In this document: positions 6,203-62,239 of the stretch, one piece after another
How positions within the stretch are numbered: position 1 is the stretch's first letter
Layout: each line of letters starts with the position of its first letter
Assembly (NCBI RefSeq): GCF_004010195.1
Contig: NC_057757.1
Coordinates: 3,106,967-3,170,966 of the forward strand
DNA: 64,000 bases
Direction: 5' to 3'
From: Chiloscyllium plagiosum
Taxonomy: Eukaryota
Position numbers and translations under genes: made by a program
Notes under the pieces: generated by a model
What the model was told of the DNA's origin: nothing
The model's input: the letters and a program-made list of their open reading frames with translations, nothing else
The model's database searches: none

Positions 6203-6430
6203 GAGAGTGTGGTGCTGGAAAAGCACAGCAGGTCAGGCAGCATCCGAGGAGCAGGAGAATCGACGTTTCGGGCAAAAGCCCTTCATCAGGAATGAGAGGC
6301 TCTTGCCTGAAACCCCGATTCTCTGGCTCCTCGGATGCTGCCTGACCTGCTCAGCTTTTCCAGCTCCCCCCCCCCCCCCCCCCAGCATCAACCTCTCGAC
6401 TCTGATCTGCAGTCGTCACTTTCTCCTAGT
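6203..6430. mobile_element. Fold-back pair of Penelope-like element termini
   Basis: gctggaaaagcacagcaggtcaggcagcatccgagga... is inverted against ...tcctcggatgctgcctgacctgctcagcttttccagc. Confidence 0.8.
6262..6289 (-). ncRNA. Minimal type I hammerhead ribozyme core
   Basis: Minus strand reads CUGAUGA-A-GGGC-UUUU-GCCC-GAAAC-GUC, with palindromic ACGU stem III. Confidence 0.75.
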
Positions 6431-7356
6431 GTTTCAAGGGGATTGAGCCACTTTCTGGGGCCATTGGGAGACCTATGGTGATGTAGTGGTGATGTTGTTC
6501 CATTTACTCTCCTGCACACGAAGCAAAGAACTCTTGAAGACTTGAGTACAAATCCCACCCTGAGGCGGTCAGATCTACATTGCATGAAATGTAAAGCCAG
6601 TCTCAGTTCACCAAAGAAATCTACGGTCTTTATCTGGTCTGGCCTACATGTGACCCCCAACCCACAGCCAAAGTTTGGGGGGGGGTTGTTGTCTGTGAAA
6701 TGGCCACCAAGGCAGTTAGAGGTGGACAAATGAATGTTGCCCCATTCCCATTGTATGCCTCAATCCCATTAAAGTAATAAAGTAAATTGGAGCCTAATTT
6801 CTACAACAAGACCATAGTCTTTGCAAGGTGAACGTCCTATCCTTATCCTCCATCCTAACCCAGGGTCTTTTGGAGAGTCACGTACAGGAGGCTGTTCAGT
6901 CCATCGAATCCATGCCATCTCGCTACGTAATAGCACTCCATACCCCAGATGGCTCCCTGGGAGTTGATTTCCCTCCAAGTGCCCACCTCTTTCTCTTCTG
7001 AAGTCGTTCATTGTCCCATCTTCCATCCCTCACATCGTGGCCAGTGAGGTCTAGGTCATTCCACTCGCAGTGCAACTCCTTCCTCATCACATCCCTCTCC
7101 TGCATCTCAAACCCAAAACCTTACAGCTGTGTCCATGCACCTTTGTAACTGCAAGAGACCCTTCCCGTACACCTATCTAGATGCAACATAATCTTGTATA
7201 CCACTTCCCCGTCAATCTCTTTTGTTCCAAAGTGGGCCAACTAATCTTGCAACGAGAACCACCTCAAACATCCCACCCCCACGCTCCCCTCTCCAATAAT
7301 CAGCCCTTTAGACATCCTCTAAACCAGGCCAATAACTGCACTTTAATGATGGTACA

Positions 7357-8932
7357 TGGGGAGGTGATGGCTTATTGGTATTATCGCTAGACTGTTAATT
7401 TATATTTGCCAGGAATTGGTGTTGGAGAGACTGTTAGGTCTGAAGGTTGATAAGTCCCCGGGGCCTGATGGTCTACATCCCAGGGTACTGAAGGAAGTGG
7501 CTCGAGAAATCGTGGATGCGTTGGCGATTATTTTTCACAGGATCAGTTCCTGCGGATTGGAGGGTGGCTAATGTTGTACCACTTTTTAAGAAAGGTGGGA
7601 GAATGAAAACAGGAAATTATAGACCAGTTAGTTTGACTTCAGTGGTGGGAAAGATCCTGGAGTTTATTATAAAGGATGAAATTATGACACATCTGGATAG
7701 TAGTAACAGGATAGGTCAGAGTCAGCATGGATTTATGAAGGGGAAATCATGCTTGACTAATCTTCTGGAATCTTTTGACAATGTAACTCTGAAGATGGAC
7801 GAGGGAGATCCAGTAGATGTAGTGTACCTGGACTTTCAGAAAGCTTTTGATAAAGTCCCACATAGGAGGTTAGTCAGCAAAATTAGGGCACATGGTATTG
7901 GGGACAAAGTACTAACTGTCATGTGATTTTAATTTGCATATTGACTGGACAGATCACATGGATAAGGATAACATGAAAGATGAATTTCGAGAGTACATCA
8001 GGGATAGCTTCTACGAACAATGCATTAGAGAATCTACCTGGCAACCTACCTACATCTAGGAATGTATAATGAGGTTAGATTGATAAGAGATCTCAGTTAC
8101 GGATCCTTTAAGGATAGCAACATGGTAGAATTTCAAATCGAATTTGAAAGAGAGTAACTCGGGTCTGGAATGGCGGGACTACCTTACGCTGATAGATTGG
8201 AGCGACTGGGCTTGTATACCCTTGAGTTTAGAAGACTTGAGAGGGGATCTGATTGAGACATATAAGATTATTAAGGGATTGGACATTCTGGAGGCAGGAA
8301 ACATGTTTCCGCTGATGGGTGAGTACCGAACCTGAGGACACAGCTTAAAAATACGGGGTAGATCATTTAGGACAGAGATGAGGAGAAACTTGTTCACCCA
8401 GAGAGTGGTGGCTGTGTGGAATGCTCTGCCCCAGAGGGCAGTGGAGGCCCAGTCTCTGGATTCATTTAAGAAAGAGTTGGATAGAGCTCTCAAGGATTGT
8501 GGAATCAAGGATTATGGAGATAAGGTAGGAACAGGATAATGATTAAGGATGATCAGCCATGATCATATTGAATGGTGGTGCAGGCTCGAAGGGCAGAATG
8601 GCCCACTCCTGCACCTATTGTCTATTATTATCTATTAAAATCCAGAGATCCTGGTAATGTTCTGGGGACTCAGGTTTGAATCCTGCCACAGCAGATGGTG
8701 GAATTTGAATAAAAATCTGGAATTATGTGTTTAAGGACAACCATGAATCCATTGTTGGAAAAACCCATCTGGTTCACTAATATCCTTTAGGGAAGGACAC
8801 TGCCATCCTTACCTGGTCTGGCCTACATGTGACTCCAGAATCACAGGAATGTGGTTGACTTTTAATTGCCCTCTGGGCAGTTGGGGATGGGCAATAAATA
8901 CTGGGTCTAGCCCTCATCCTGTGAATGAGTAA
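7357..8932 (+). mobile_element. Second SINE family split by CR1 insertions (head 7357-7400, body 8637-8932)
   Basis: Head gatggcttattggtattatcgctagactgttaat resumes as atccagagatcctggtaatgttctgggg...gggcaataaatactgg. Confidence 0.65.
7415..8635 (+). mobile_element. CR1 LINE ORF2 pieces (RT N-terminal part and a 3' end)
   Basis: PADWRVANVVPLFKKG...NYRPVSLTSVVGKILE...QHGFMKGKSCLTNLL...YLDFQKAFDKVPHRRL; LRGDLIETYKIIKG. Confidence 0.92.
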
Positions 8933-9146
8933 ATGTTTTAAAAATAGCTGATCTGATCCAGGGGAAATGGTGGCACAGTGGTAATGTTGCCAATTCATTA
9001 ATGTTCTGGTGTAGCTGGGTTTAAATTTGGTTACTATTCATGGGCTGCGGATGTCACTGGCTGGGCCTACATTTATTTCCCACCCCTAATTGTCCAGAAG
9101 ACACTTATGTGTCAATCCCATTGCTGTGGGTCTGGAGTCACATGTA

Positions 9147-9471
9147 TCATAGCATCCCTACAGTGTGGAAACAGGCCAATCGGCCCTTTGAGTCCATAAT
9201 GGCCCTCTGAAGAGAATCCCATCCAATCCCTGTAACCAGACATTTCCCATGGCTAACCCACCCAGTCTGCCCATCCTTAGACCCCATGGTGCAATTCCCC
9301 ATGACCAATCTACCCTAGCCTGCACATCTTTGGACTGTGGGAGGAAACCGGCGTAAACCCAAGCAGACACAGAAGAATGTGCAAACTCCACACGGCCATA
9401 TGCCCGAGGGTGGAATTGAACCCGGGTGCTGTGAGGCAGCAGTGCTAACCATTGAGCCACCATGCCACCCA
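9147..9471 (-). mobile_element. V-SINE inserted into the second SINE family, 7-bp TSD
   Basis: acatgta at 9140-9146 and 9472-9478. Confidence 0.85.
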
Positions 9472-10070
9472 ACATGTAGGCCAGACTGGGTAAGGATGGC
9501 AGCTCTCTGTCCCTAAAATGAGTCAGAAGGGTTGTTAAGACAATCAATGATGGTCCTTCGTTCCAGATTGTTATCAAATTGCACCATTTGCCAAGATGGG
9601 GATTTGAATTTGCATCTCCAAGACCTTAGTGCGGGGCTCTGGTGACATGGCAACGCCTCTCCGCAGCTTAAAATCTTATCTCAAGAAACGCTCTCCCTAA
9701 TGCCCTTAAGGGAAGGAAATCTGCCGTCCTTACCCAGTCCGGCCTAGACGTGACTCCCCGACCCCTGATGTGGGTGACCCTGAAATGGCTAAATGGGCCA
9801 CTCAGTTCAAAAGCGCTGAGAGACGGGGCAGTAAACGTTGGCTTCATCTGCATCCCAGACTGACTCAGCCTGGATAACCAGGAAGAACTGAGGAGCCTTT
9901 GTCTTTGCTGAGGAAGTTGTTTTGAACATAGGACACGTCAGCAGCTCCACAGACTCATTGAAACACAGAGCGCGGACGGTGTGTCACAGACTGAACTGCG
10001 CATGAGTCACTCTGTTCGGTTCAGTGAAAGCTGCAGTGGTAATTACTCGACTGTCGATGCTTGCTTACAG

Positions 10071-10204
10071 GCGATTGTGCATCCTCTGAAGCCTCGCATG
10101 TCGGTTCCCCGGGGTATCATCTGCGTCGCTGGCATCTGGGTCCTGGCCTCCTGCTTCTCGCTGCCTCACGCTATTTACCAGAGGCTCTTCCGCTTTGTGT
10201 ACAG
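10071..10204 (+). CDS. GPR83-like GPCR, exon 3 (ICL2-TM4)
   Basis: Acceptor tgcttacag|GCG. Encodes AIVHPLKPRMS...IWVLASCFSLPHAIYQRLFRFVY. Donor AG|gtaggc, phase 2, 134 nt. Confidence 0.95.
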
Positions 10205-10666
10205 GTAGGCCAGCCCGCACAGTCCAGGAACGCGGGAGGCGATGGAACACAGAGCCGCGCAGTATACAGCCAGACCCTTTGGCCCTTCTTGGCCGAGCCT
10301 AAACCCTCCTCTTTCCAGGCCATGGGCCTTGAGTGTTGGCTGCAAGAGGTGATGGGCCCACGGGTCAGGTAGTTGGCTGCCATGGGCGCCTGCTCATTAG
10401 GAGCAGGAATAGGCCATTTGGTCAATCTAGCCTGCTCGATGAGAGTGGGGCTGATCTGATCTTAGCCACTGTCCTCACTCCCACCCACCCCTTACAGCCT
10501 CTGACACCCAAAAGTCTAACTGTCTCCGCCACACCTCTATCCAAACGATTCTCAATAACTCCACATCCACCATTCTCAGGGTGGGTGGAAAGACTCCTGC
10601 CCTTCAGAGAGGAAAGAAAATCTGCTCATCTCTACTGTAACACCATATTCTCTTCTATTACCCTGA

Positions 10667-10940
10667 CATAGAATCCCTACAGTGTGGAACCAGGCCATTT
10701 GGACCATACCGATCCCCCGAGGAGCAACCCAACCCCAAAACTCTTGCATTTCCCATGGCTAATGCACCTAGCCTGCACTCTATGGGCAATTTAGCATGGC
10801 TAATCCACCCTAACCCAATCCTCTTTGGACGGTGGGAGGAAACCCACACAGAGATGGGGGAGAACGTGCAAACTCCAAGGATAGAATCGAACCCAGGTCC
10901 CTTCGCTGTAAGGCAGCAGTGTTATCCACTGAGCCACCAT
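10667..10940 (-). mobile_element. V-SINE
   Basis: Same head, V-domain and tail as other copies. Confidence 0.8.
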
Positions 10941-11149
10941 TTCTCCCATACCTGAACAGCACGGTGTAAGGTATGATCTGCTAGGACAGCATGCAAAACA
11001 ATACTGTTCACTGTCTCTCAGTACACGTGAAATAATAAATCAAATCAAATCAAATCAAAAGCTTCAACCTTGAAGTGTAATTACTCAAAAATCATGGCAC
11101 TCATTTCAAAGTAATGTGTTGGTAGGGGGATAATTACTGACTCAGGGAG

Positions 11150-11540
11150 AGAAATCTAGGCTGGGACAGTTTTCGCTGGAGTGTCAGAGGCTGAGGCATG
11201 ACCTTATAGAGGTTTGTAAAATCATGAGGGGTATGGATAGGATAAATAGACAAGGTCTTTTTTTCCCCAGGGTAGGGGAGTCCAAAATTAGACGGCATAG
11301 GTTTAAGGGAGAGGAGAAAGATTTAAAAAGGAACTTTTTCACACAGAAGGTGGTACGCATATGGAATGAGCTGCCAGAGGCAGTGGTGGAGGCTGGTACA
11401 ATTACAACATTTAAAGGGCATCTGGATGGGTACATGAATCAGAAGGGTTCAGAGAGATATGGGCCAAATGCTGGTAAATGGGACTAGATTAGGTTAGGAT
11501 ATCTGGTCAGCATGGACGAGTTGGACTGAAGGATCTAAAT
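11150..11540 (+). mobile_element. CR1/HER1 LINE 3' end
   Basis: MRGMDRINRQGLFFPRVGESKIRRHRFK...FFTQKVVRIWNELPEAVV. Confidence 0.9.
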
Positions 11541-13129
11541 CAAATCAAATGAAATCAAAAGACTAGAGCCATGATCTTTAAGCTACTGACCCCGAGTTTT
11601 AGACTCTCTCACAAATGGAAGGAAACTCTTACCTTCAACCCTGAGGACCTCATTAGTCTCAATAAGATCACCGCTCATTCTGGGGGTATTGGCCCAGTCT
11701 CTATCCTCTCAGGATAACTCCTCCTATCCTGGGTGCCAGTCAAACGAAGTTCTCGAAACTGCTTCTAACATCTCCAGGAGCAATCATTGTGATGTCCTTA
11801 CCTCAATAAAAAAAAACAGGCTTGCATGTAACACTCAGAGATCAATAAAAATGAACTGGGATCTTTCTGTGTAATGTAGTTATAGTGGCCTGTGGGGAAG
11901 TGGCTGGAACAGAGGGTAATTAAAAATGGTAGCCCTCAGTTTACAGTTCTCAAGAAGGATCACTGGACCCGAAATGTTGACTTTACTTTCTCTCCATGGA
12001 CCTGCTGAGTTTGTCCGGCAAGTTCTGGTTTTGTTTGCGATTCCCAGCATCCGCAGTTCTTTGGATTTTTTTGTTAAACTGTCAACCTAGCTCCTCTCCA
12101 CTCCGATTTCTGAATTTATCTTCTAACTTGCCTCGGGTACTGCAAGCGTTAAGTACACATAGAGGTGAGGCTCCTTGTTCATCTATCCTCCCTCGTTTTC
12201 AGCTGAAACCTCAAACCTGAGTTCCTACCACCATCTTGATTCATAGATTTATACAGCACAGAAAAAGCCCTTTGGCCCATCAAGTCTGTACTGACATTAC
12301 CATTCAAAGTGCGCTAATCCCAATTTCCTGCTTTGTCTCATATCCCTGAATGTTATGATATTTGAAGTACTCATCCAAATAATTTTTAAATGTCGCAAGG
12401 TTTCCAGCCTCTACCTGAAGGTTTTACACTTCTTGTGAACCTCCTCTCACCCCAACTCCCCTCCCCTGTCAAGGCCAGTCTATCCTTGCTTAGATATGGG
12501 GCCCACAACACCTCACAATATTCTGACCAGAACCTCAGCAGTACGTCGCTGCCCTTGCTCTCCAGCCCTCTCGAGATGAATGGCAACATTACATTTGCCT
12601 TTGGAACTACCTCCCTCTGCACTGTAACGATGCTGTGGTCCTGATACAGAGGTGGTGGAGTTCAGGGAGGCGGTTCCAGAGCTTGGAAACTAAAAGAACA
12701 GCGACCAATGTTGGGAGGATTAGCATTAACGATTCACGTCAGAGGCTGGCATTGGAAGAACATAAAGATCTCTCATTGGTGTTTTGGGCTGGAGGAGATT
12801 GCGGAGATAGAGATGACGAGAGCTCGTGGTGACTCGAGTAGGAGGAAAGGTAACGACAAAGACAAGATGGTGCTGGAGGAAGGGTAGGTCATTGGGAGAG
12901 GGTTGGTGGTGAGGGGGTGATGGGTGAATGAGATATGCTGCGAGTTGAGATTTTTATGACCTGAAATTCACAGCACGTGGGAAAGAGGGCGTCTATTCAA
13001 GATGGCTGTCAACTGAGGTGACACAATATAGGAAATAGGAGCAGGAGGAGGCCAGTCAGCCCTTCCATCCTGACCCACTGTTTGATGAGATCAGATCAGA
13101 AAGTGGCTTTAGCCAACTTCCCTCATAGC

Positions 13130-13665
13130 GTCATAGAATCATACAGTATGGAAACAGACCCTTCTGTCCAACCCAGTTCATGTCGACCATAATCCCAAAC
13201 TAAACTAGTCCCACCTGCCTGCTCCTGACCCATATCCCTCCAAACCTTTCCTAGTCATGGACGAATCCAAATGACTTTTAAACATTGTAACTGTATCCCC
13301 ATCCACCACTTCCTCAAGAAATTCATTCCACACACGAACCACTCTCTCTGTAAAAATGTTGCCCCTCCTGTCATTGTTAAATCTTTCTCCTCTCACCATA
13401 AAAATACACCCCCAAGTCTTGATAGCCCCCACTTTAGGGAAAAGACTCTTGCCATTTTCCTTGTCTATGCCACTCATGGTTTTATAAACCTCAATGTGGT
13501 CACCCACCAACCTCCTAGGCTTCAAATAGAAGAAGTCCCAGTCTATCCAGCCTCTCCTTATAACCCCATTCTTGGTAACATCCTCATAAATCGTTTTTGC
13601 ACCTTTTCCAGTTTAATACCATTCTTCCTACAGCAGGTTGACTAGAATTGTATGCAATGTTCCAC
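13130..13665 (-). mobile_element. CR1 LINE 3' end
   Basis: GDHIEVYKTMSGID...FTERVVRVWNE. Confidence 0.85.
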
Positions 13666-13671
13666 ATTTAG

Positions 13672-14640
13672 AATTGGAATTAGAATCCTTACCACGTGGA
13701 AACAGGCCATTCGGCCCAACAAGTGCATACCGACCCTCCGAAGAGTAATTCGCCCAGACCCATTCCGCTACATTTACCCCTGAGTCATTCACCTAACCTG
13801 CACATCCCTGGACACTATGGGACAATGTAGCACGGCCAATCCACCCTAATCTGCACATCCCTGGACACTATGGGACAATGTAGCACGGCCAGTCCACCCG
13901 AACCTGCACATCCCTGGGCACTATGGGACAATGTAGCACGGCCAATCCACCCTAATCTGCACATCCCTGGGCACTATGGGACAATGTAGCACGGCCAGTC
14001 CACCCGAACCTGCACATCCCTGGGCACTATGGGACAATTTAGCACGGCCAATCCACCCTAATCTGCACATCCCTGGACACTATGGGACAACTTAGCATGG
14101 CCAATCCACCCTAACCTGCACATCCCTGGACACTATGGGACAATTTAGCACAGCGTATCCACCCTAACCTGCACATCCCTGGACACTATGGGACAATTTA
14201 GCACGGCCAATGCACCCTAACCTGCACATCCCTGGGCACTATGGGACAATTTAGCATGGCCAATCCACCCTAACCTGCACATCCCTGGACACAATGGGAC
14301 AATTTAGCATGGCCAGTCCACCCTAACCTGAACATCCCTGGGCACTATGGGACAATTTAGCACGGCCAATCCACCCTAGCCTGCATATCCCTGGACACAA
14401 TGGGACAATTTAGCACGGCCAATCCGCCCTAACCTGCACATCCCTGGGTACCATAGGACAATTAAGCATGGCCAACCCACCCTGACCTGCACATCTTTTG
14501 GACTGTGGGAGGAAACTGGAGCTCCCTGAGGAAACCAATGCAGTCACGGGGGAGAATGCGCAAACTCCACACAGACAGTCGCCCGAGGCTGGAATTGAAC
14601 CTGAGTCCCTGGTGCTGGGAGGCAGCTAACCCCATGCCTC
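13672..14640 (-). mobile_element. V-SINE with a ~13-copy 53-bp internal tandem array (13795-14495)
   Basis: Unit cacatccctggacactatgggacaatttagcacggccaatccaccctaacctg at period 53, lying between SINE tail and head. Confidence 0.9.
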
Positions 14641-15194
14641 CCCCCCAACCCTCGTCACTACTCCCACACATGGTCTTGACTTATATACGCCACCTCTCTT
14701 GCAATGGAGGTCAACACTTGCTTTCTTAATTTGTTGCCTGTTAAATGTGATTAATGTACAAAGATGCTCTGCACAGCAGCACTCTCTAAATGTTACATAT
14801 CAATTGCAACATGTAAAACCAATATCACCACTGCTGAGAGTGCCTACAGCAACCCTTGCTGACCCATCTCGGTGGACAAATATGCCCACTCCAATTTCGA
14901 AATTGCAATGCCCGCAGGCAAATCATTTCCAGTGTAGCCAAAGGAATAACCTCAAAAGCTTTTCTAATTGGTTTCTGAGGTGAAGTCCGTACAATCGCTG
15001 TGTTACCTATCAGCTGGAGTGTATTGCATATCACTGACTTGAAAATTGTATATTGTAAATAAAGTGCAACTCATGCAGAGGGTGAGTGTTGCGTTAGATT
15101 GAAGACTGGACTGAAGTGTCTGCTATCCACATTCTGTGCCTGTGACAACAAATACTTTAGTCATGTTTGTGCCTGACCTGGTTTTGATCCTGTT

Positions 15195-16750
15195 GTAGAG
15201 CAGAGAGACCTTGGAGTTCAGGTACATAATTCTTCAAAATTTACATCACAAAAAGGCAGGGTGGTTAAGAAGGCATTTGGCACACTTACCTTCATTGCCC
15301 AGGCCTTTGAGTACAGGAGTTGGGGTGTCATGTTGAGGTTGTACAGGACATTAGTGAGGCCTCCTCTGGAGCACTGTGTCCAGTTCTGGTCTCCCTGTTA
15401 TAGGAAGGATATGATTAAACTGGAGAGGGTTCAGAAGAGATTTACCAGGATGTTGCTGGGTATGGAAGGTTTGAGTTATAAGGAGAGGCTGGGACTGTTT
15501 TCCCTGGAGTGTTGGAGGTTGAAAGGTGACCTTATAAAGGTTTTTAAAATCATGAGGGGTATTGAAAAGGGAGCTGTCTTTTCCCTAGGGTGGGGGTACA
15601 AGAATAAAGGGCACATTTAAAGGTGAGAGGAGAAAGATTTTAAAAAGACACAAGGTACAACTTTTTTTACACAGAGAGTGGTTCGTGTGTGGAATGAACT
15701 TCCTGAGGAAGTGAAGGATGTGGGTACAGTTGCAAAATTTAAAAGACATTTGGGTAAGTCCATAAAGAGGAAAGGTTTGGAGAGATATGGGCCAGGAGCA
15801 GGCAGGTGGGACTAGTTTAGTTTGGGATTATGGTCGGCATGGACTGGTTGGACTGTAGGGTCTGTTTCTGTGCTGTATGACTCTATAATAACAGGAAATA
15901 TATCTGGAAAGGATATCAGAAAAAGATAGACATTCTGGGACTCTATTCTCTTGAAAAGGGAAGGCTGAGGGGTGATTAAGTGTCAAAGGTATTGTGGCTG
16001 AAAAAACATCCAAGGAGCAGGAGAATTGATGTTTTGGGCAAAAGCCCTTCATCAGGAAGGGCTCTCCCAGGGGTGAGTGAATGTCAGGAAAACAATGGAA
16101 GATTTTTCAGAGATCAGAGACAGGGGGAACATCTCTTGCTGCAGTTATACAGGGCCTTGGTGAGGCCACACCATGAGTATTGTGTGCAGGTTTGGTCTCC
16201 TAGTCAGAGGAAGGACATTCTTGCAATTAAGGGAATTGAGTGAAGGTTCACTGGACTGATTCCCGAGATTTCCCAGGATGTTGCCGAGTATGGAGGGTTT
16301 GAGTTATAAGGAGAGGCTGGATAGAGCGGGACATTTTTCACTCGCGTCAGAGGTTGAGGGGTGACCATATAGAGGTTTATAAAATCATGAAAAGCATGAA
16401 TAAGATGAATGATAGGTGTCTTTTCCTAGGGTGGGGGAGTTCGAGACCGGGGTGGGGGGATGGGGGGGCTGGCATATTTTTAAGGTGAGAGGAGAAAGAT
16501 TTTAAAAAGATATGAGGGGTAGTTATTTTACACAGAGAGTGGTTCGTGTGTGGAATGACCTTCCAGAGAGAGTAATGGATGTGGCTACAGTTACAATGTT
16601 TAAAAGACATTTGGGTAAGTCCATGAATGGGAAAGGTTCGGAGGGATATGGGATAGGAGCAGGCAGGTGGGACTAGTTTAGTTTGGGATTACGGTCGGCA
16701 TGGATTGATTGGATTGTACAGTCTGTTTCCGTGCTGTAGGACTGTATAAC
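15195..16750 (+). mobile_element. Composite of CR1 3' fragments and a PLE terminus; largely an inverted copy of 4611-5470
   Basis: ORFs 4828-5052(+) and 15828-16052(-) differ at 1 of 74 aa; CR1 motifs on both sides. Confidence 0.85.
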
Positions 16751-16818
16751 TGATGAAGGTTTTATGACTGAGCTGTACATTCTGGAGTGTAAGTGTGAAC
16801 ATGCCTGTGATTCTCTGA

Positions 16819-17508
<690 letters not shown>

Positions 17509-24139: not shown

Positions 24140-24570
24140 TTGAGGAGCCCAGGCCCGGAAATTGCAAGATGTGGGAAATCTGACATTCACCTGGTGGTCT
24201 GGATGACCTGGGGCACAGGAGGTATCTCCACGTGGAGAAACTCAAGCTCTGGGGTTTGGAGTTTGAGGGTGCAGCCACACATTCAGAACGCACGTCCAGC
24301 TTTCAGGAAGCACAGGAGGAAGAGGGATTAGGTGGCCACCAGAAAGAAGAAAGGGACCAGACAGGCAGTGATGGGAAGGCCAGATCTCACTCACAAATCG
24401 TTTCTCAGGCCTTGAAAAATGGTGAAAGTGATGGTTCCTCTGTGGAGGCCAGGCAGAGCTCACTCAAGGAAGGATGTGCAACAGTAATAAAGGCGGGCAA
24501 TTCATTCGCAAGAGGAGGAGGCAGACTCGTTTGCAACCGTAGATGCGACTGAAGATGGCATGTTGCTTGG
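24140..24570 (+). mobile_element. Degenerate CR1 ORF1 (esterase-like) remnant
   Basis: TVIKAGNSFARGGGRLVCNRRCD resembles the CR1 ORF1 SGNH start (VVIGDSIVRG..RRFC). Confidence 0.4.
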
Positions 24571-24571
24571 C

Positions 24572-24964
24572 ATCATAGAATCCTTACAGTGCAGGTAGAG
24601 GCCATTCAGTCCATTGAGCCTGCACCAATCCTCCGAAGATCATCAATCCTGGATTTCCCATGGCTAAACCCCCTAACCTGCACATCCCTGGGCACTATGG
24701 GACAATTTAGCACGGCCAATCCACCCTAACCTGTACATCCGTGGACACAATGGGAAAATTTGGCTTGGCCAATCCATCTGAAAGTGCACATCCCTGGGCA
24801 CTATGGGACAATTGAGCACTGCCAGCACAACTGACATTGTTTGAATGTGGGAGAAAACCAGAGCACACAGAAAACATGCAAACTCCACACACCCGAGGGG
24901 GAAACCAAACTGGGTCCCTGGCACTGTGAGGCAGCAATGCTAACCACTGAGCCACAGTGCTGCC
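24572..24964 (-). mobile_element. V-SINE with ~3 internal repeats
   Basis: Head, V-domain and tail visible. Confidence 0.8.
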
Positions 24965-26677
24965 AAGTGTAGTGTGAGGTGCATTAGGGAGCGCCGACAA
25001 GTTCTACTCCCATCATTTAGAAGCACGTCTTCATCCCACATTGGATGCTCGGTTTTGACTTACTCTTGTACTGGTGGCTTATGGAGTGGACAGTCCCTGG
25101 TCAGTCACTCGCATCAATTACAAAGGCACCCATTTGAATTCCCGATCAGTGAGTCATCTCTCTGGGTGAGCTTCCTAATGCACTCACCTCCTGAGTGACT
25201 GGGAAAGGTGAGTGACTGTTTTCTTTTTGAGTGGTCTCAATCAGCTAAGTCGTGATTGCTGATGAGTTGCCAGAGGGATTCACAAAAAGGGCAGTAGTCA
25301 AAATGCAGGCTTGTTGCTTTTTGATTGCACCATGTATTGGTGAACATGCAAATTAGGAGCAGGAGTAGGCCATTCGACCCTTCAAGCCTGTTTCTTCGTC
25401 AGGGGGCTCTGATGTGATGGTGACCTCAGTTCTGGCCTCCTTCCTGCTATTAGGCAAAAGTAAGGACTGCAGATGCTGGAAACCAGAGTTTAGATCAGAG
25501 TGGTGCTGAAAATGCACAGCAGGTCAGGCAGCATCTGAGGAGCAGGAAAATTGACATTTAGGGCAAAAGCCCTCCTTTCTTACTATTGTTTCCTTTGTGA
25601 GCCATGAATCTGTCTACTTCAGTCATAAAAATGCCCTTCCCTCCCTTCTGGCATAAATCATTCTAAAGAGTCATGACCCTGTTCGACAAAAACACAGCTA
25701 CCCCTCATTCTAGTCTTCTCTTTTGAGAACATCCACCCTGTTCATAATCCTTTAAGATCGCACACATTTCACAAGGCCACTGCTCATTTGTATTGCAACA
25801 CATAATACCCAGAAGGAATATGGAATCATGGTTTCATTTTAATTCCTGGCTATAATCAGTGGCAAATGTGTCTTCAGATATTCCCTAATCAGGGGCACTT
25901 TATTGCAAAGAAATATCAAGTATTTGGCTGCATGGGATGACTAGATGATGCTAATATAATCCCGATTCCCCATTTTCCTCATCTCCTGAACTACATCGTT
26001 TTCCTTTTAGTTTTTCCCATCTATTGCTCTGCCTTCTTGTCCCATTGGGATGGAACTGCTTGCTGGTGTGCTACTGAGTGTCAATGGAAGAGGGCCTATC
26101 CCAGAATGCATTGGGATTATGAAAGGCCTCTATTGAAAAACTGAGGCAGTGAGAAGGGGAGACAGAGGTTTTCAGGGTGAGATCCTCACTCAATTAAGAA
26201 GAATTGGTATCATTGCAGGGGTTTAAAACCCCTCAATCCATACCTTCTCACCCTCTCTCCTCCCCCAAGGCACGGTGACCCTTAGGTTAAACCCATATCT
26301 GTCGTCTCTCTCTTAATGACAGTGCAGCCCTATCATTCTCTGAGACTAGGTCTGTACCAGTATGACACAAAATACTCCAGCTGTGCCCTAACCAGCATTC
26401 TGTACAGTTCCAGCTTAACATATACCATGCCTTAGCTAAAGAGGACAAGCACCTTCTAGGCCTTCCAAAGCCCTTAGCTACCTGCCCTGCTATCTTCAGG
26501 ATCTATATATATGCACGGCAAGGTCACTCTGATCTCTATACTTTACAAGGTCCTACTATTCAGAGTGTAATACCTTGCCTTGCTAGTCCTCCCTACCTTT
26601 CCAAATTGAATTCCATTTACCACTAGTCTGACCTTTTGAGATCCTCCAATTTACAGTGACCATCCTACTTACCACCT

Positions 26678-26980: not shown

Positions 26981-27436
26981 CAATTATACGGAAAACAGTC
27001 TCAGAGTTGTTCAAGGAGGAGGGATTAGTGAGTTCACACACATACAATAAAAGACTGTGAGCGCTGGAAATTAATGCTGAAACCTAAAATCAGACATTGC
27101 TGGGAAAACTCAGTAGGTCTGGCAGCATTTGTGGAGAATAAGCAAAGCTAATGCTTCGGGTCTAGTGAGTTCTGAAGAAGGATGACTGGACCAGGAGCTA
27201 AAGCCCTCCTATATCTCTGCAGCCACCTCTTTATCCCCTCCATCCTTCTATTGTTAAACTCACTACTGTGTAGCACTGGGAGCAATCCAGAGATTAAAAC
27301 CTTTGAAACCCTGCTTTTCAATTCCCTCCCTCACTCCCTAAAGACTGTTTGCATTTCTCTTTCGTGCTACAGCATTGGTCCCAAAAAAGACTGTTCGCCC
27401 TCCCCCTTCATTCCAAGACATCTTTGACCATTGGCA

Positions 27437-28735: not shown

Positions 28736-28899
28736 ACAAATGACTCTTCATATTCTTTTCCCACCTTCCACTTCAACACTGCCCCCCCAACCCTTTCACA
28801 TTCTTACATTTCAAAGGGAGACAGCAACATCATGTGGTAGTCATGGGGTTAAGTAATTCAGCAACTCGAACAAACTAGGAACACAGGTTCAAGAGAGGT

Positions 28900-32104: not shown

Positions 32105-32233
32105 ATAAAAACAATGACTACAGATGCTGGAAACCAGATTCTGGATTAGTAGTGCTGGAAGAGCACAGCAGTTCAGGCAGCATCCGAGGAGCAGTAAAAT
32201 CGATGCTTTGGGCACAAGCCCTTCATCAGGAAT
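32105..32233 (-). mobile_element. 129-bp PLE terminus inserted into a CR1 3' UTR, 14-bp TSD
   Basis: ctaacctaatctag at 32091-32104 and 32234-32247; contains a degenerate hammerhead (ctgatgaagggcttgtgcccaaagc). Confidence 0.85.
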
Positions 32234-32496: not shown

Positions 32497-32780
32497 CTGG
32501 ATCAGTGGTGCTGGAAGAGCACAGCAATTCAGGCAGCATCCGAGGACAGGCAAAATCGACGTTTCGGGCCAAAGCCCTTCATCAGGAATAAAGGCAGAGA
32601 GCCTGAAGCGTGGAGAGATAAGCTAGAGGAGGGTGGGGGTGGGGATAGAGTAGCATAGAGTACAATAGGTCAGTGGGGAAGGAGATGAAGGTGATAGGTC
32701 AGGGAGGAGAGGGTGGAGTGGACAGGTGGAAAAGGAGCTGGAGGGGCTGAGTCTGAGGGCGGAGGTGCGGGATGTGGACG
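32497..32780 (-). mobile_element. PLE 3' region running into the assembly gap
   Basis: Same terminus as 6203-6293, plus purine-rich sequence shared with 48865-49298. Confidence 0.75.
32558..32585 (-). ncRNA. Minimal type I hammerhead ribozyme core
   Basis: CUGAUGA-A-GGGC-UUUG-GCCC-GAAAC-GUC on the minus strand. Confidence 0.75.
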
Positions 32781-33714: not shown

Positions 33715-35432
33715 TGTACCAGCTTCCATCATTTCCCTGGCAGCTCATTCCATACCACCCTCTGCGTGAAAAAGTTGCCCCTTAGGTATCTTTTAACTTT
33801 CTCCTCTCACCCTAAACCCTCCCCCACCCCAGGGAAAGACCTGGTCTATTTACCCTATCCGTGCCCCTCATGATTTTATAAACCTCTATAAGGTCACCCC
33901 TCAACCTCTGACACTCCAGGGAAAACAGCCCCAGCCTGTTCAACTTCTCCCTATAGCTCAGATCCTCCAACCCTGGCAACATCCTTGTAAATCTTTTCTG
34001 AACCCTTTCAAGTTTCACAATATCCTTCCGATAGGAAGGAGACCAGAATTGCGCACGATATTCCAAAAGTGGCCTAACCAATATCATGTACAGCCACAAC
34101 ATGACCTCCCAACTTCAATACTCAGTGCTCTGAGGAGAGGCTGGATAGGCTGGGACTTTTTTAATTGGAGTGTAGGAGGCTGAGGGGTGACCTTACAGAG
34201 GTTTACAGAAATATGCATAGATAAGGTGAATAGAAAAGGGTTTTTTTTCCCCCCTAGGGTAGGGGAGTTCCAAACTAGAGGGCATAATTTGAAACAAGAA
34301 CAGAAATTACTGGAAAAGCTCAGCTGATCTGTCAGCATCTGTGGAGAAAAAGCAGAGTTAACATTCTGGGTGAAGTCAAACTTCCTCAGATTGACAGCAT
34401 CCACAGTTCTTTCGGTTTTTTATTTCGAGCATAATTTCAAGATGAGAGGAGGAAGAATAGATAGGGACCTGAGGGCTAACGTTTTCACACCGAAGGTGGT
34501 TGGTGAATGGAATGAACTGCCAGAGGAAGTGGGAGGTGCAGGTACATTTAAAAAACATTCAGTCAGGTACAAGAATAGGAAAGGTCTACCAGGATACGGG
34601 CCAATTGCGGGCAAACGGGACTAGTTTAGTTTGGGACACCTGGTCAGCATGGACGAGTTGGGCCGAAGGGTCTCTTTCCATGTTGTATGACTCGATGACC
34701 CCTCTGCCGATGTAGAAGGTGCAGGTTCATAGCTCCTTGAAAGTGGAGTCGCAGGAAGAGAGGATAGTGAAGAAGGCGTTTGGTATGCTTTCCTTTATTG
34801 GTCAGAGTATTGAGTACAGGAGTTGGGAGGTCATGTTGTGGCTGTACAGGACATTGGTTCGGCCAATATTGTGAGCAATTCTGGTCTCCCTCCTATCGGA
34901 AAGATGTTGTGAAAACTGAAAGGGTTTAGAAAAGATTTACAAGGATGTTGCCAGGGTTGGAGAGTTGAGCTATGGGGAGTGGCTGAATAGGCTGGGGCTG
35001 TTTTCCCTGGAGTTTTGGAAGCTGAGGGAACCTTTACAGATGTTTATAAAATCATGAAGGGGCATGGATAGGATAAATAGACAAAGTCTTTTCACTGGGG
35101 TGGGGGAGTCCAGAACTAGAGGGCATAGGTTTAGGGTGAGAGGGGAAAGATATAAAAGGGACCTAAGGGGCAACATTTTCACACAGAAGGTGGTGCATGT
35201 ATGGAATGAGCTGCCAGAGGAAGTGGTAGAGACTAGTACAATTGCAACATTTAAAAGGCATTTGGATGGGTATATGAATAGGAAGGGTTTGGAGGGATAT
35301 GAGCCGGGTGCTGGCAGGTGGGACTAGAATGGGTTGGGATTAGAATGGGTTGGGATATCTGGTCAGCATGGACGGGTTGGACCGAAGGGTCTGTTTCCGT
35401 GCTGTACATCTCTGTGACTCTATGAGTCTATG
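33715..35432. mobile_element. Cluster of CR1/HER1 3' fragments (33715-34125 -, 34130-34700 +, 34715-35432 +)
   Basis: LVRPLLEY..QFWSP..RKD..KLERVQKRFTRMLPG and FTQKVV.VWNELPEEVV motifs. Confidence 0.88.
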
Positions 35433-39992: not shown

Positions 39993-41840
39993 GAGGTCAT
40001 GGTCAAGGGGGTGATAGGAGGAGGTGTCTTTGACTTGGCGCCTGGCTCGACCATGACCTCACTCCCCTCCACCCCCCCCATCAGCAAACCATCATCTCCC
40101 AGACCATACAGAACCTCATCACCTCAGGAGATCTCCCACCCACAGCTTCCAACCTCATAGTCCGGGAACCCCGCACCACCCGCTTCCACCTCCTTCCCAA
40201 GACCCACAAGCCTGACCACCCTGGCCAACCCATTGTCTCAGCATGCTCCTGCCCCACTGAACCCATCTCCACCTACCTCGATATTGTCCTATCCCCCCTA
40301 GTCCAGGAACTCCCCACAGATATTCAGGACACCACCCACGCCCAAGACTTCCGTTTCCCCGGCCCCCAACACCTCATCTTCACCATGGATATCCAATCCC
40401 TCTACACCTCCATCCGCCATGACCAGGGCCTCCAAGCCCTCCGTTGTTTCCTCTCCAGATGTCCCCAACAGTACCCTTCCACCAACACTCTCGTTCATTT
40501 GGCCGAACTGGTCCTCACCCTTAACAATTTCTCCTTCGAATCCTCCCACTTCCTCCAGACCAAAGGGGTAGCCATGGGCACCCGTATGGGCCCTAGCTAT
40601 GCCTGTCTCTTTGTTGGCTACGTAGAACAGTCCATCTTCCGTAGTTACACCGGCACCACTCCTCACCTCTTCCCCCGTTACATTGATGACTGCATTGGCG
40701 CCACCTCGTGCTCCCGCGAGGAGGTTGAGCAATTCATCAACTTCACCAACACATTCCACCCTGACCTTAAATTTACCTGGACCATCTCTGACACCTCCCT
40801 CCGCTTCCTGGACCTCTCCATCTCCATCAATGATGACCGACTCGACACTGACATTTTTTACAAACCCACCGACTCCCACAGCTACCTGGATTACACCTCT
40901 TCCCACCCTATCTCCTGCAAAAATACCATCCCGCATTCCCAATTCCTCCGCCTCCGCCGTATCTGCTCCCAGGAGGACCAGTTCCATCACAGAACATACC
41001 AGATGGCTCTTTCTTTAGAGACCGCAATTTCCCTTCCCACGTGGTTGAAGATGCCCTCCAACGTGTCTCGTCCACATCTCGTCCCTCCGCCCTCAAACCC
41101 CACCCCTCCAACAAGGACAGAACGCTCCTGGTGCTCACCTTACACCCTACCAACCTTTGCATAAACCGCATCATCCGCTGACATTTATCGCCATCTCCAA
41201 ACAGACCCCACCACCAGGGATATATTTCCCTCCCCACCCCTTTCCACCTTCCGCAAAGACCGTTCCCTCTGTCACAACCTGGCCAGGACCCTCCAACAAC
41301 CCACCCTCCCATCCTGGCACCTTCCCCTGCCACCGCAGGAATTGTAAAACCTGTGCCCACATCTCCTCCCTCACCTCCATCCAAGGCCCTAAAGGAGCCT
41401 TCCACATCCATCAAAGTTTTACCTGCACATCCACCAATATCATTTACTGTATCTGTTGCTCCCGATGCGGTCTCCTCTACTCTGGGGAGACTGGACGCCT
41501 CCTAGCAGAGCGCTTTAGGGAACACCTCTGGGACACCCGCACCAATCAACCACACCGCCCTATGGCCCAACATTTCAACTCCCCCTCCCACTCTGCTGAG
41601 GACATGCAGGTCCAGGGCCTCCTCCACCGCCACTCCCTCACCTGACGCCTGGAGGAAGAATGCCTCATCTTCCGCCTCGGAACACTTCAACCCCAGGGCA
41701 TCAATGTGGACTTCACCAGTTTCCTCATTTCCCCTTCCCTCAGCCTCACCCCAGTTCCAACCTTCCAGCTCAGCACCACCCTCATGACCTGTCCCACCTG
41801 CCAATCTTCCTTCCCACCTATCAGCTCCACCCTCCTCTCT
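39993..41840 (+). mobile_element. Neptune-type Penelope-like retroelement (RT, Cys-rich linker, GIY-YIG endonuclease); 5'-truncated and frameshifted; intronic and antisense to the protease
   Basis: MDIQSLYTSI...NNFSF...QTKGVAMGTRMGPSYA...RYIDD...FLDL...YKPTD...SSHP; PCHRRNCKTC; NIIYCICC..C..LYSGETGR.LAERFREH. Confidence 0.92.
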
Positions 41841-42221
41841 GACCAACACAGACAGTCGCCCAAGGCTGGAATTGAACTTAGGACCCTGGCGCTGGGAGGC
41901 ATCAGTGCCAACAAAATAGTTTCTCTTTATCTACCCTGAAGCTAATGCTTTCTCGGGGGGGAAATCCGCTGTCCTTACCCGGTCCGGGCCTCCCTGTGAC
42001 TCCAGACCCACAGCCAATGTGCTTGACCCTTAATCGCTCTCTGAGCTGAGTCTGTCAGTGGCAAAGGGCAATTAGAGATGGATATCAAACAACGGCCCTG
42101 CACACCAATGCCCACACCCTGGGCAAAGGAAAGAAGGACTGGCCTGTGTCTTATTGAGGGGCCGAATGATCTCTCCTGCTCATTCCATCAGCACCACTGC
42201 AACAAATAAGACAGGATTTAC

Positions 42222-43569: not shown

Positions 43570-44134
43570 CTGCACAGAAACCGATCTGTCAGTACCAACC
43601 CTTTGGTCTTCCCACCACCTCCACTCTTCCACTCTCCCTCCCCTAGGGCTCCGACATCCCTTTCCAATTGCTCAAACTCCATTTGGAAGCCTTGACCTAC
43701 AGGCCTAAATTTAAACAGGCCCTGGCCTACCAGAGATGGTTGTTTACGATGGCTGCTACGATGGGTGGTGGGAGGAGAGGGCAGCCAGGGGCGAGTTTGC
43801 TGTTGCGGGATTGGAAATCCTCTCAGCCCCATCCCAACACCAGCTTCGGAAAGGGCCATGTCAGGATGACCAGCTCCCTCCCAAGAGAGACCTTGAGGAG
43901 GTCAGTAGGCCGAGCACAGGTGAGAGGGGGTTACCTCAGAAAGGTGTTTGCCAAAAGCGTGTGGTGTTGAAGGGCTTATGCTTGAAGTGTCGATTCTCCA
44001 GCTCCTCAGATGGTGTCTGGCCTGCTGTGCTTTTCCAACACCACACTCTCGACTCTGATCCCCAGCATCTGCAGTCTGCACTTTCTCCTCAGAAAGGCAT
44101 TTGTCAGACCAAATGGAAAATTGGTTGGGTTAGT

Positions 44135-44817: not shown

Positions 44818-44863
44818 CTGTTTCACTCGTTTTGGACTGCACTCTTGCGCTGCGCCGTATTCA

Positions 44864-45076
<213 letters not shown>

Positions 45077-48864: not shown

Positions 48865-49298
48865 GATTCTGGATCAGAATGGTGCTGGAAAAGCACAGCA
48901 GGTCAGACAGCATCCGAGGAGTAGGAACATTGATGTTTCGGGCAAACACCCTTCAGGACTGAAGGCAGGGATCCTGGATAGGTGGAAAAGGAGCTGGGCA
49001 GGTCGGGCAAGTCCGGACAGGTCAGGGGATCGAGTTTCTGGAGGTTAGAAGCTGGGGTGAGGTGGGGCAAAAGGAAATGAGGAAACTGTTGAAATCCACA
49101 TTGATGCCCTGGGGTTGAAGTGTTCCGAGGCGGAAGATGAGGCGTTCTTCCTCCAGGTGTCGGGTGGTGAGGGACCGGCGGTGGAGGAGGCCCAGGACCA
49201 GCATGTCCTCGGCAGAGTGGGAGGGGGAGTTGAAATGTTGGGCCATGGGGTGGTGGGGTTGATGGGTGCGGGTGTCCCGGAGATGTTCCCTAAAGCAC
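48865..49298 (-). mobile_element. PLE 3' end: GIY-YIG C-terminus, 3' UTR and degenerate hammerhead terminus
   Basis: FREHLRDTRT..PHHPMAQHFNSPSHS...EERLIFRLGTLQPQGINVDF, followed on the same strand by cctgaagggtgtttgcccgaaacatc. Confidence 0.88.
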
Positions 49299-52445: not shown

Positions 52446-52957
52446 CTGGAGCAACCTGTCACCACAGTCTCTGTCTCCTGCTCATTTGAATCCAATTGGC
52501 AAGCTCTTTTCTTTTTCGGGTTAGCTCCACCAGGGAAGCGGGGGGGGGGGGGGGCTTTGAGGAGGGGGATGTGGGGGAAATTGGTGCTGGGGTTTGAACT
52601 CAATTGAACTTTCCGTTTGACAGATGGCACACCAATAGTTTCCTCAGGAACCGCTGATCCCTCTTAATAAGCGAAATAAAAGGCCGAGGGAGCCAAAAGT
52701 CAGAGTCATGAATAATAAAGAAAGGGCCTTCTGTTTTCTTTCAAGCTATCTGTAAGTAAAATGTCAATAATTAATGCTTAAATACCATCCAACAGTTTCC
52801 AAGCCTGGGCAGCTCTGTTCCCTCAAAGGCAATGTGTCCATAGTTACTGTGCTGACATTAATCATCGGCTTGCTGTAATTAAACCTAACCTCCTCATTAA
52901 AGGGCAAGGGGTCCACCAGAGGAATCATTGCCTCTGAATGGGAAGTCTGGGCTCTAA

Positions 52958-53680
52958 ATCATAGAATCCCAGTGTGGAAGCATGCCATTCAGCCCATTGA
53001 GTCCACAACAACTGTCTGCAGAGCATTCCACCCAGACACCAGCCCCCACCCATCCCATCCTGGTTCTGTAAACTCCCATGGCTAACCCACCCTCACCTGC
53101 ACATCCCTGGGCACTATGGGACAATTTAACACGCCCAATCCACCCTAACCTGCACATCCCTGGGCACTATGGGACAATTTAACACGCCCAATCCATCCTA
53201 ACCTGCACATCCCTGGACACTATGGGACAATTCAGCATGGCCAATCCACCCTAACCTGCACATTCCCAGGGCACTATGGGACAATTCAGCATGGCCAATC
53301 CACCCTAACTTGCACATCCCTGGACAATATGGGACAATTTAGCACAGTCAATCCATCCTAATCTGTAGCACAGTGGTTAGCACTGCTGTCTCACAGCACT
53401 AGAGATGCAGGTTCAATTCCCACCTCAGGCAACTGTCTGTGTGGAGTGTGCACGTTCTCCCCGTGTCTGCATGGGTTTCCTACAATTTAGCATGGCCAGT
53501 CCACCCTAACCTGCACATCCCTGGGCACTATGGGACAATTTAGCAGGGCCAGTCCAACCTAACCTGCACATCTTTGGACAGTGGGAGGATACCGGGGCAC
53601 CTGAATGAAACGCACGAAGACATGAGGAAGAACTTACAAACTCCATGCAGACAGTCACCCGAGGGTGGGACCAAACGTGG
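52958..53680 (-). mobile_element. V-SINE with 53-bp array and an oppositely oriented SINE head inside (53366-53480)
   Basis: Tandem units 53093-53365 and 53480-53572 are interrupted by gtagcacagtggttagcactgc...gtttcc. Confidence 0.8.
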
Positions 53681-60111: not shown

Positions 60112-60259
60112 TCGTAACCTTCTAATAGAAATAATAACATTCTATTAGAAACAGTAACATTTCATTAGAAACAAGAACATTTCAATAGAATTAGTACCCT
60201 TCTATTAGAAATAATAACATTATCAGAAAGAGTGACATTATATTAGAAACAATAACATT

Positions 60260-60888
60260 CATAGAGCCATAGAGATGTACAGCACGGAAACAGACCCTTC
60301 AGTCCAACCCGTCCATGCTGACCAGGTATCCCAACCCAATCTAGTCCCACCTGTCAGCACCTGGCCCATATCCCTCCAAATCCATCCTATTCATATACCC
60401 GTCCAGATGCCTTTTAAATGTTGCAATTATACTAGCCTCCACCACTTCCTCTGGCAGCTCATTCCATACACGTGCCACCCTCTGCGTAAAAACGTTGCCT
60501 CTTAGGTCTCTTTTATATCTTTCCCCTCTCACCCTAAATCTATGCCCTCTAGTTCTAGACTCCCCCACCCCAGGGAAAAGACTTTGTCTATCTATAAAAG
60601 GTCAGTTAGACTCGAAACGTCAGCTCTTTTCTCTCCTTACAGATGCTGCCAGACCTGCTGAGATTTTCCAGCATTTTCTTTTTTTGTTTCAGATTCCAGC
60701 ATCTGCAGTAATTTGCTTTTATACTTTGTCTACTTATCCTATCCATACTCCTCATGATTTTACAAACTTCTATAAGGTCACCCCTCAGCCTCCGACATTC
60801 CAGGGAATACAGCCCTAGCCTATTCAACCTTTCCCTATAGCTCAAATCCTCCAACCCTGGCAACTTCCTCATAAATCTTTTCTGAACC
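60260..60888 (-). mobile_element. CR1/HER1 3' end with a PLE-terminus insertion (60591-60722, TSD actttgtcta)
   Basis: actttgtcta at 60581-60590 and 60723-60732. Confidence 0.85.
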
Positions 60889-60956
60889 ATTCTACTAGAA
60901 ACAGTAATAATCTATTAGAAATAATGACATTATCTTCGAAACAGTAACTTTTTTTT

Positions 60957-61269
60957 AGATTACTTACAGTGTGGAAATGGACCCTTCGGCCCAACAAGTC
61001 CACACTAACCCGCCGAAGCGCAACCCACCCAGACCCATTCCCCTACATTTACCCCTTCACCAAACACTACAGGCAATTTAGCACAGCCAATTCACCTCAC
61101 CTGCACATTTTTGGACTGTGGGAGGAAACCGGAGGACCCAGAGGAAACCCACGCAGACACAGGGAGCAACGTGCAACCTCCACACAGTCAGTCGCCTGAG
61201 GCGGGAATTGAACCCGGGTCTCTAGCGCTGTGAGGCAGCAGTGCTAACCACTGTGCCACCGTGCTGCCC
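60957..61269 (-). mobile_element. Full-length V-SINE
   Basis: Head gggcagcacggtggcacagtggttagc on -, tail ctgtaagtaatcta. Confidence 0.88.
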
Positions 61270-62042
61270 ACAAATAATAATTAGTAACATTCTATTTGAA
61301 ACAATAACAATCTGTTATAACTAGTGAGCTACTTCAAGGGATGACAGTGTACAGGCAATGCCAAACGTTTAAGAAATGCACGGGAGGACAGCAATAACTG
61401 CTTATTCCTGTCCAGCACAAAAGTAAAATGAGTAAGAGTGCCAATCCATGTCTGACAAAGGAAATTAGAGGTAGTATCTGATCCAAGGAAGAAGCATACA
61501 GATTGGCCAAGAAAAACAATAGGTCTCAGGATTGGGAACAGTTTAGAATTCAGCAAAGAAGGATCAAGGGATTGATGAAGAAGGAGAAAATACAATACAA
61601 AAATAAGCTTGAGGGAGCATGAAGACTGGCATCTCTATCAGTATGTGAAGAGAAAGAGATGGGGACAAAGAAATGACTGAGCAATTAAATATATATTTTG
61701 GTTCTGTCTTCACAAAAGGGAACACAAATCAGATACCAGAAATGTTGGAGAACATAAGATTTAGTGAGAGGTAGGAACTGAGGGAGGTCAATATTAGTAG
61801 AGAAATGGTGTGGGAAAATATGATGAGATTGAAAGTAGATAAATCCCCAAGTCCTGATAATCTACATCTCAGAAAGTGGCTCTCAAAATAACGGATGCAT
61901 TGGTGGTCATTTTCCAGGATTCGATAGACTCCGGAATAGTCCCTGTAGATTGGAAGATAGCTAATGTCATTCCAATATTTAAAAAGGGAGGTAGAAAGAA
62001 ACCAGGTAATTATAGACCAGTGTTATGAAGTTGAAGGCTAAT

Positions 62043-62239
62043 ATAAAGTTAAAAATCACACAACACCAGGTTATAATCCAACAGGTTTAATTGGAAGCAC
62101 ACTAGCTTTCGGAGCTCCGCTCCTTCATCAGGCGGCGCTCCGAAAGCTAGTGTGCTTCCAATTAAACCTGGTGGATTATAACCTGGTGTTGTGTGATTTT
62201 TAACTTTGTACAACTCAGTCCAACACCGACATCTCCAAA
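62043..62239. mobile_element. Palindromic PLE-terminus element (71-bp arms) with 11-bp TSD
   Basis: Arms 62045-62115 and 62137-62207 differ at one base; tgaaggctaat/tgaagactaat flanks. Confidence 0.85.
62103..62131 (-). ncRNA. Minimal type I hammerhead ribozyme core (different sequence family)
   Basis: CUGAUGA-A-GGAGC-GGA-GCUCC-GAAAG-CUA on -, with palindromic AGCU stem III and CGC/GUG stem I. Confidence 0.75.

Follow-up and report, generated by a model that had tools for sequence, protein, structure and literature searches.

The window analyzed here is a stretch of 64,000 nucleotides of the Chiloscyllium plagiosum genome (assembly GCF_004010195.1, contig NC_057757.1, positions 3,106,967 to 3,170,966 of the forward strand). 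It holds a rhodopsin-family G-protein-coupled receptor (GPCR) gene on the plus strand (~1168-17400), a trypsin-family protease gene on the minus strand (~45070-39650), and dispersed short repeats related to Penelope-like elements (PLEs), three of which keep an intact minimal hammerhead ribozyme core. We conclude, with a probability of roughly 0.85, that these repeats derive from the terminal repeats of PLEs, which bear the hammerhead, as short, 5'-truncated copies, often arranged head to head. They were likely made anew at each insertion by the enzyme of the parent element and are likely inert as ribozymes once inserted.

Hammerhead cores and PLE ends in the window

Three minus-strand cores had been claimed for the window, and each reads back as CUGAUGA, an extra A, stem II, and GAAA, at 6289-6262, 32585-32558, and 62131-62103. 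The palindromes ACGU, ACGU, and AGCU and the triplets GUC, GUC, and CUA were likewise confirmed, in that order, at the cores ending at 6262, 32558, and 62103. The cores and the insertions that carry them are as follows.

6262..6289, minus strand: family A1 minimal hammerhead with intact core; cleavage predicted to follow C at 6262; predicted burial in a long hairpin
32558..32585, minus strand: intact minimal hammerhead core, family A1; located between the two host genes
62103..62131, minus strand: family B minimal hammerhead with intact core; cleavage predicted to follow A at 62103; predicted burial in a long hairpin
6198..6427, both arms: family A head-to-head insertion; short-tailed arm on minus with the core, long-tailed arm on plus, beginning at +3 and without CUG
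32497..32741, minus strand: family A 3' end; ~150 nt of genuine upstream 3' untranslated region (UTR) retained
62043..62239, both arms: head-to-head insertion of family B; the short-tailed arm lies on minus and the long-tailed one on plus

The assignment to a minimal type I hammerhead of PLE origin held, as the cores match the published PLE minimal hammerhead (PMC4209133). They show CUGANGA...GAAA...NUH, one additional nucleotide ahead of stem II, and the pair G10.1-C11.1, and positions 15.2-16.2 are palindromic (ACGU in families A, C, and D, AGCU in B) with no helix III. The suspected weakness of stem I at 6262 and 32558 was also found: the family A1 stem consists of 2 bp, a U-U pair, and 1 bp. 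An Rfam scan of the window gave no hammerhead match at E<=5, and a U6 match at 33932-34040 was taken as chance, its score of 20.4 lying below the gathering score of 44. A loose descriptor of core plus stem II returned 3 real matches in the window versus 0-4 in 20 shuffles, which is not beyond chance alone. Over 582 kb of a genomic sample of 140 arbitrary 10-kb stretches (1,358,737 non-N bases), the same descriptor returned 50 matches versus 3-9.

All 14 repeats listed in the original prediction are PLE terminal-repeat ends, with profile hidden Markov models (HMMs) built from other genomic copies matching at 14/14 positions, and of the PLE families expected (at least two or three), three are present in the window. 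Family A gave 11 matches in the window (two of them pieces of the end of an open reading frame, ORF), including those at 4822, 6192-6364, 16007, 25450, 32102, 32489, 43968, and 48876; family C gave 6, including 5610-5823, 11943, 27048, 34285, and 60596; and family B gave 2, including 62037-62243. The copies at 6203 and 62043 are inverted pairs with target-site duplications, a feature that had not been noticed before: the first is bordered by an imperfect duplication (6188-6197 / 6428-6437) and the second by one of 11 bp with 1 mismatch (62032-62042 / 62240-62250). A run of ~19 C at 6375-6392, possibly a sequencing or slippage artefact, breaks the long arm of the 6203 insertion. The 32497..32741 copy belongs to a subfamily shared with copies lying ~330 nt past a GIY-YIG ORF; an 816-nt gap of N (32781-33596) lies immediately upstream of it on the minus strand.

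Abundance and families across the genome

Exact family cores number 81,470 for A and 16,283 for B in the whole genome, ~98,000 together, whereas the reversed patterns occur 0 times. Arm counts in the sample were 210 for family A, 82 for B, 130 for C, 22 for D, and 16 for E; extrapolated to the genome, they give ~550,000, ~215,000, ~340,000, ~58,000, and ~42,000 arms. Families D (L062, L079, L089, L136, L149, L157, L160) and E (L067, L074, L121, L133, L150, L153, L164, L172) are further hammerhead families that are absent from the window, with 6-7-bp stems II, ATG at the core, and a TATA-like motif ~50 nt upstream. The GIY-YIG ORF of family D lacks the CxxC linker and would be Poseidon-like. 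A subfamily of A, termed A2b (L032:9521, L065, L083), shows low divergence and restores a complete stem I of 4 bp (AUUC/GAAU) in place of the A1 stem with its U-U pair; of the copies seen, it is the best candidate for activity.

The short copies as probable insertion products with variable junctions

Among the 81 head-to-head pairs of the sample, 78 different junction pairs occur and lengths run from 134 to 453 nt, indicating that the short copies are not one unit; neither a fixed length nor a common internal junction, as a non-autonomous element copied as a unit would have, was found. Flanking duplications of at least 9 bp border 50 of 78 pairs, compared to 9 of 71 controls. The 3' ends form two peaks ~30-38 nt apart in families A, B, and C, and a pair typically joins one long arm to one short arm (62 of the 74 classifiable pairs, 50% expected, P=1e-9; the remaining 7 of 81 were unclassed). 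The same long/short anatomy is seen in a 3.4-kb element (L245). An inverted 5' pseudo-long terminal repeat (pLTR), a one-sided 30-40-nt tail, and a target-site duplication are all present, as at the termini of endonuclease-bearing (EN+) PLEs.

At the other end of the arms, the 5' ends show a pile-up just before CUGAUGA: counted from its C, 81 of 187 A arms and 36 of 80 B arms begin at -15..+4 (117/267). The stop rate there is 0.03-0.04 per nt versus 0.002-0.007 per nt farther upstream, about a tenfold difference; these counts cover families A and B, family C, which lacks an upstream model, being left out. In families D and E, 0 of 30 arms stop at the core edge (first 120 stretches; P=1e-7 versus the A/B pile-up). 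Since 153 of 187 A arms and 67 of 80 B arms reach +14 or farther 5', through the cleavage site, uncleaved RNA is the likely template. By eye, no sharp 5'-end peak at the scissile bond was apparent in the first 100 of 462 family B rows (~5-8 starts versus 12-14 each at -4, -3, and -1), nor in family A (first 100 of 3,578 rows), where ~10-13 starts at +28 have as neighbours 9 at +26, 9-11 at +27, 5 at +29, 15 at +30, and 15 at +32. The family A sample shows a mild bump (15/174 at +25..+32; 0.011 per nt versus ~0.004 on either side), and family B none (3/73); a separate set of 74 matches at the cleavage site is confounded by slippage in GTGTG.

These data bear on the proposal that the repeats are distinct ribozyme-bearing mini-elements, which was not borne out: we found 5'-truncated, often inverted insertion products with variable junctions and near-neutrally decaying cores. 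In the form in which non-autonomous, retrozyme-like mini-elements are transcribed, cleave themselves, and spread as units, we consider this reading improbable. While the very high copy number, the narrow size class of the pairs (mostly 160-250 nt), and a report of PLE-derived retrozymes in vertebrates, one cartilaginous fish included (bioRxiv 10.64898/2026.07.22.740005), would all suit it, it is difficult to reconcile with the diversity of junctions, with a layout that is head-to-head and not tandem, with cores buried in predicted hairpins and decaying as described below, and with the reading-through of the cleavage site in most arms. Copies in the window are solo or head-to-head, and the head-to-tail tandems typical of retrozymes were not seen there (tandems were not counted genome-wide). 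One short partial family B tandem (L092:1361-1592) consists of a first core broken at the predicted cleavage site, then 3' UTR, then a second core.

Parent elements

A broken autonomous element of family A lies within the window, a finding that goes beyond the original prediction.

40034..41870, plus strand: broken autonomous family A PLE; reverse transcriptase (RT; Pfam RVT_1, E 2.8e-7), CxxC linker, GIY-YIG (E 0.0011, under the curated cut-off)

This 1.8-kb element lies antisense in introns of the protease gene, between the exons at ~42450-42200 and 39880-39650. It carries frameshifts and stops, keeps a 289-codon RT stretch open, and has lost its 3' end before the hammerhead. Of 21 loci with a GIY-YIG query match, 14 have a family A core in sense 121-642 nt past it, mostly ~330. 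For family B, an upstream ORF with RT-thumb, CxxC, and YIG motifs was read directly in L095, L110, and L111. The link to an ORF with RT and C-terminal GIY-YIG, which together with the terminal structure marks an EN+ PLE, thus exists by Pfam for A and by motifs for B. Both families have CxxxxCxxC in the linker that joins RT to endonuclease, and, as a CxxC linker marks the Neptune or Nematis clades (PMC8557442), this motif would place them in one or the other. An intact full-length element was sought via nine long open frames, and those listed turned out to be assembly gaps. Gaps of 1.6-3 kb in the assembly fall at the young long PLE copies (L243-L251), so that the assembly probably contains fewer full-length elements than the genome itself.

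Conservation, folding, and RNA

The claim that stem II differs between families with its pairing kept was confirmed and can be widened, as stems I, II, and III all covary between families. Stem I has the majority pairs CG, UA, U-U, AU in A1 (n=84); CG, UA, UA, AU in A2b (n=11); CG, AU, CG in B (n=34); UA, UA, GC, AU in C (n=15); and AU, CG, GC in D (n=18); a row for family E, in which D and E copies were mixed, was dropped from this comparison. The first pair of stem I thus varies among C-G, U-A, and A-U, while G10.1-C11.1 is invariant; stem II in A and B is 4-5 bp long. This covariation between families indicates that selection likely acted on the fold in the master elements.

Conservation of the core relative to its flanks, which had been put forward as a test, is slight at most among the scattered copies, which show near-neutral decay. 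Non-CpG core mismatches number 37 against 51.4 expected in family A (P=0.02) and 22 against 25.2 in family B (P=0.30), 23 of 112 A arms and 8 of 46 B arms carry a mutated G12, a CpG position, and core plus stem II are retained in 43 of 210 family A arms. For 48-nt pieces, the hammerhead fold is predicted to be less stable than the optimum by 1.9-4.2 kcal/mol, and its predicted cost in context is 28.7 (6289), 4.7 (32585), and 37.1 (62131) kcal/mol; two of the three intact window cores (6289 and 62131) sit in predicted perfect hairpins. Published minimal PLE hammerheads showed no cleavage as monomers and low cleavage as dimers (PMC4209133), or needed the PLE protein for cleavage (PMC11167929). 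A poly(A) single-cell RNA run contained 1,401 family reads in both directions, 97% of which continue into unlike sequence; no pile-up of read starts or ends, at the cleavage site or elsewhere, was found in this run, a type of library poorly suited to show one. From sequence, the scattered copies are likely inert as ribozymes once inserted.

Copies had been predicted inside introns of both host genes, and copies are indeed present in both, but for no intact core could a sense position within a host intron be shown. Relative to the GPCR gene, the 6289 core runs antisense; the 62131 core lies upstream of the first protease exon found, and the copy at 43968, in a protease intron, is antisense with a broken core. 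That some dispersed copies were co-opted to cleave host pre-mRNA from within introns, on the model put forward for amniotes, is highly improbable on our assessment. The ~98,000 exact cores, the presence of family sequence in both directions in the RNA run, and the precedent of amniote intronic hammerheads (PMC6155905) could be cited in its favor, whereas the missing sense placement, the absent, low, or protein-dependent activity reported for minimal PLE hammerheads, and the lack of any site at which many RNA molecules begin or end (in that poorly suited library) speak against it.

A proposed insertion mechanism

We propose that the GIY-YIG/RT protein would cut both strands with nicks ~10-17 bp apart, and that both nicked 3' ends would prime reverse transcription at two internal starts, ~100 and 130 nt past the core. 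The template would probably be one uncleaved RNA that serves both priming events, as the long/short rule is harder to account for with two separate RNAs. Both cDNAs would mostly end just 5' of CUGAUGA, probably as the transcript starts there, and would then be joined head to head, or one would be lost. Ribozyme function would be under selection in the master elements and not in the scattered copies. To the mechanism as a whole (double nick, double priming, run-off, and joining) we assign about even odds.

The 5' hot spot falls at the initiator-like TCATTC in family A and CAGTT in family C, and in family B ~30 nt after TATAAAT, suggesting run-off at a transcript start. The specific version in which a single RNA starts at the first base of stem I, at an initiator-like site, and is primed twice at two RT starts, with both cDNAs running off its capped 5' end, is tentative, and we rate it somewhat below an even chance.

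An alternative retains the PLE origin and would form the mirror arm by self-priming or fold-back of a single cDNA or antisense RNA at palindromes, with the 5' pile-up arising from endonuclease nicking at the ATT directly ahead of the core or from RT stalling and not from a transcript 5' end. An earlier study put forward self-priming to account for head-to-head junctions of PLEs (PMC3846280). ATT is the preferred site of the anole PLE endonuclease (PMC11167929) and is found at -4..-2 in family A, and many junctions show microhomology. Fold-back alone, however, leaves the different RT starts of the two arms (the 62 of 74 pairs) unexplained, the family B pile-up has no ATT at its position, and, if RT stalled at the ribozyme, families D and E, with their longer stems II, should not have 0 of 30 arms stopping there. 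We regard this alternative as unlikely, albeit not negligible.

Several observations weigh against our reading of the repeats as freshly made products of a PLE enzyme. Twelve of the 74 classifiable pairs are long+long or short+short; the family B ORF pieces gave no meaningful Pfam match; in family A the tail is slightly less well preserved than the core, which may reflect tail subfamily variation or weak selection; and the short copies could themselves be re-copied. The prediction of a cap-derived G failed in raw counts before A-4 (G 5,354 versus A 5,629; at a control position, G 3,137 versus A 1,205). Upon inspection by eye of the junctions of 20 G and 20 A loci, drawn from the head of each list with one duplicate row passed over in each, a lone untemplated G was seen in 6/20 and a lone untemplated A in 1-2/20 (P=0.09-0.24), a signal that is suggestive only.

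Relation to known systems

The pLTR minimal hammerheads of PMC4209133 share with ours the type I core, the extra nucleotide between A9 and G10.1, G10.1-C11.1, the palindrome at 15.2-16.2, and the absence of helix III, as well as the occurrence of several families per genome, of scattered motifs that mostly stand alone and are "probably related to truncated PLEs," and of opposite-strand pairs. Hence both the motif and its association with PLEs are already known, as are its spread in truncated copies and its opposite-strand pairs; the portions of that account consulted do not mention sharks. Stem II in families A and B is shorter than in that account, and the counts given there are ~4,000 (coelacanth) and ~9,000 (Xenopus) versus ~98,000 exact cores here, under differing descriptors.

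Described insertions of EN+ PLEs (PMC3846280, PMC8557442) likewise have head-to-head pLTRs, a 30-40-nt tail at one end, and target-site duplications of ~10 bp, and the CxxC linker is shared with Neptune/Nematis (PMC8557442). The copies here differ in being mostly two pLTR ends without an ORF, at an estimated 10^5 scale, and in that the long/short rule and the 5' hot spot at the hammerhead edge are quantified. For the green anole Poseidon PLE in vitro (PMC11167929), two internal RT starts bounding the tail resemble our two 3'-end peaks, both strands were cleaved and extended, and the main template was uncleaved RNA. By its linker, that element belongs to another clade, and its evidence is biochemical while ours comes from sequence; neither inverted-arm formation nor a 5' stop hot spot is described in the portions consulted. 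Animal non-LTR retrozymes are also short, non-coding, kin to PLE pLTRs, equipped with a type I hammerhead, and present in very high copy number, with 126,247 motifs in axolotl (PMC7229834; bioRxiv 10.64898/2026.07.22.740005). Those retrozymes are head-to-tail tandem units of defined length with circular RNA (same sources), whereas the copies here are solo or head-to-head, variable in length, and predicted to be folded shut.

A literature search found neither a description from sharks nor the mechanism proposed here; subscription papers, Repbase, and supplements were outside its scope and may list shark PLEs. Beyond the published accounts found, we observed the long/short arm rule (62/74) and the 5' pile-up before CUGAUGA (117/267). 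The formation of inverted PLE ends and tails has been called undefined (PMC8557442), and the estimated million copies constitute a junction dataset that makes two predictions testable: that one RNA is primed twice, and that the transcript starts at stem I. If true, the single-RNA, double-priming reading would map a Neptune-type transcript start onto the ribozyme and explain the structure of inverted pLTR plus tail. For annotation, the hairpins score as microRNA-like folds below Rfam thresholds and risk being misread as miniature inverted-repeat transposable elements (MITEs) or as co-opted ribozymes.

Further copies and other repeats in the window

The remaining copies have broken, truncated, or degenerate sequences.

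32106..32233, minus strand: family A solo long-tailed arm, beginning at -4; core broken in GAAA; ~14-bp flanking duplication
4822..4875, plus strand: family A fragment with broken core, in one arm of a 608-nt inverted duplication
16007..16058, minus strand: family A fragment with broken core, partner of the 4822 fragment
25450..25577, minus strand: family A solo long-tailed arm, core truncated
43968..44092, plus strand: family A solo long-tailed arm with broken core, antisense in a protease-gene intron
48876..49174, minus strand: family A 3' end with broken core, the C-terminal part of the GIY-YIG ORF still attached
5610..5823, both arms: old family C-like head-to-head pair, cores degenerate
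11943..12070, plus strand: family C arm, core degenerate
27048..27168, minus strand: family C arm, degenerate
34285..34390, minus strand: family C arm, core degenerate
60596..60718, plus strand: family C arm, core truncated

The 608-nt inverted duplication (94%; 4611-5218 and 15662-16269) lies in GPCR introns, and both of its arms hold the same truncated family A fragment. A 53-bp tandem unit, apparently derived from a repeat resembling a short interspersed nuclear element (SINE), forms five arrays in both orientations (2773-3029, 13686-14621, 24566-24865, 27466-28828, and 52932-53630), and the window also contains 19-, 48-, and 70-bp minisatellites.

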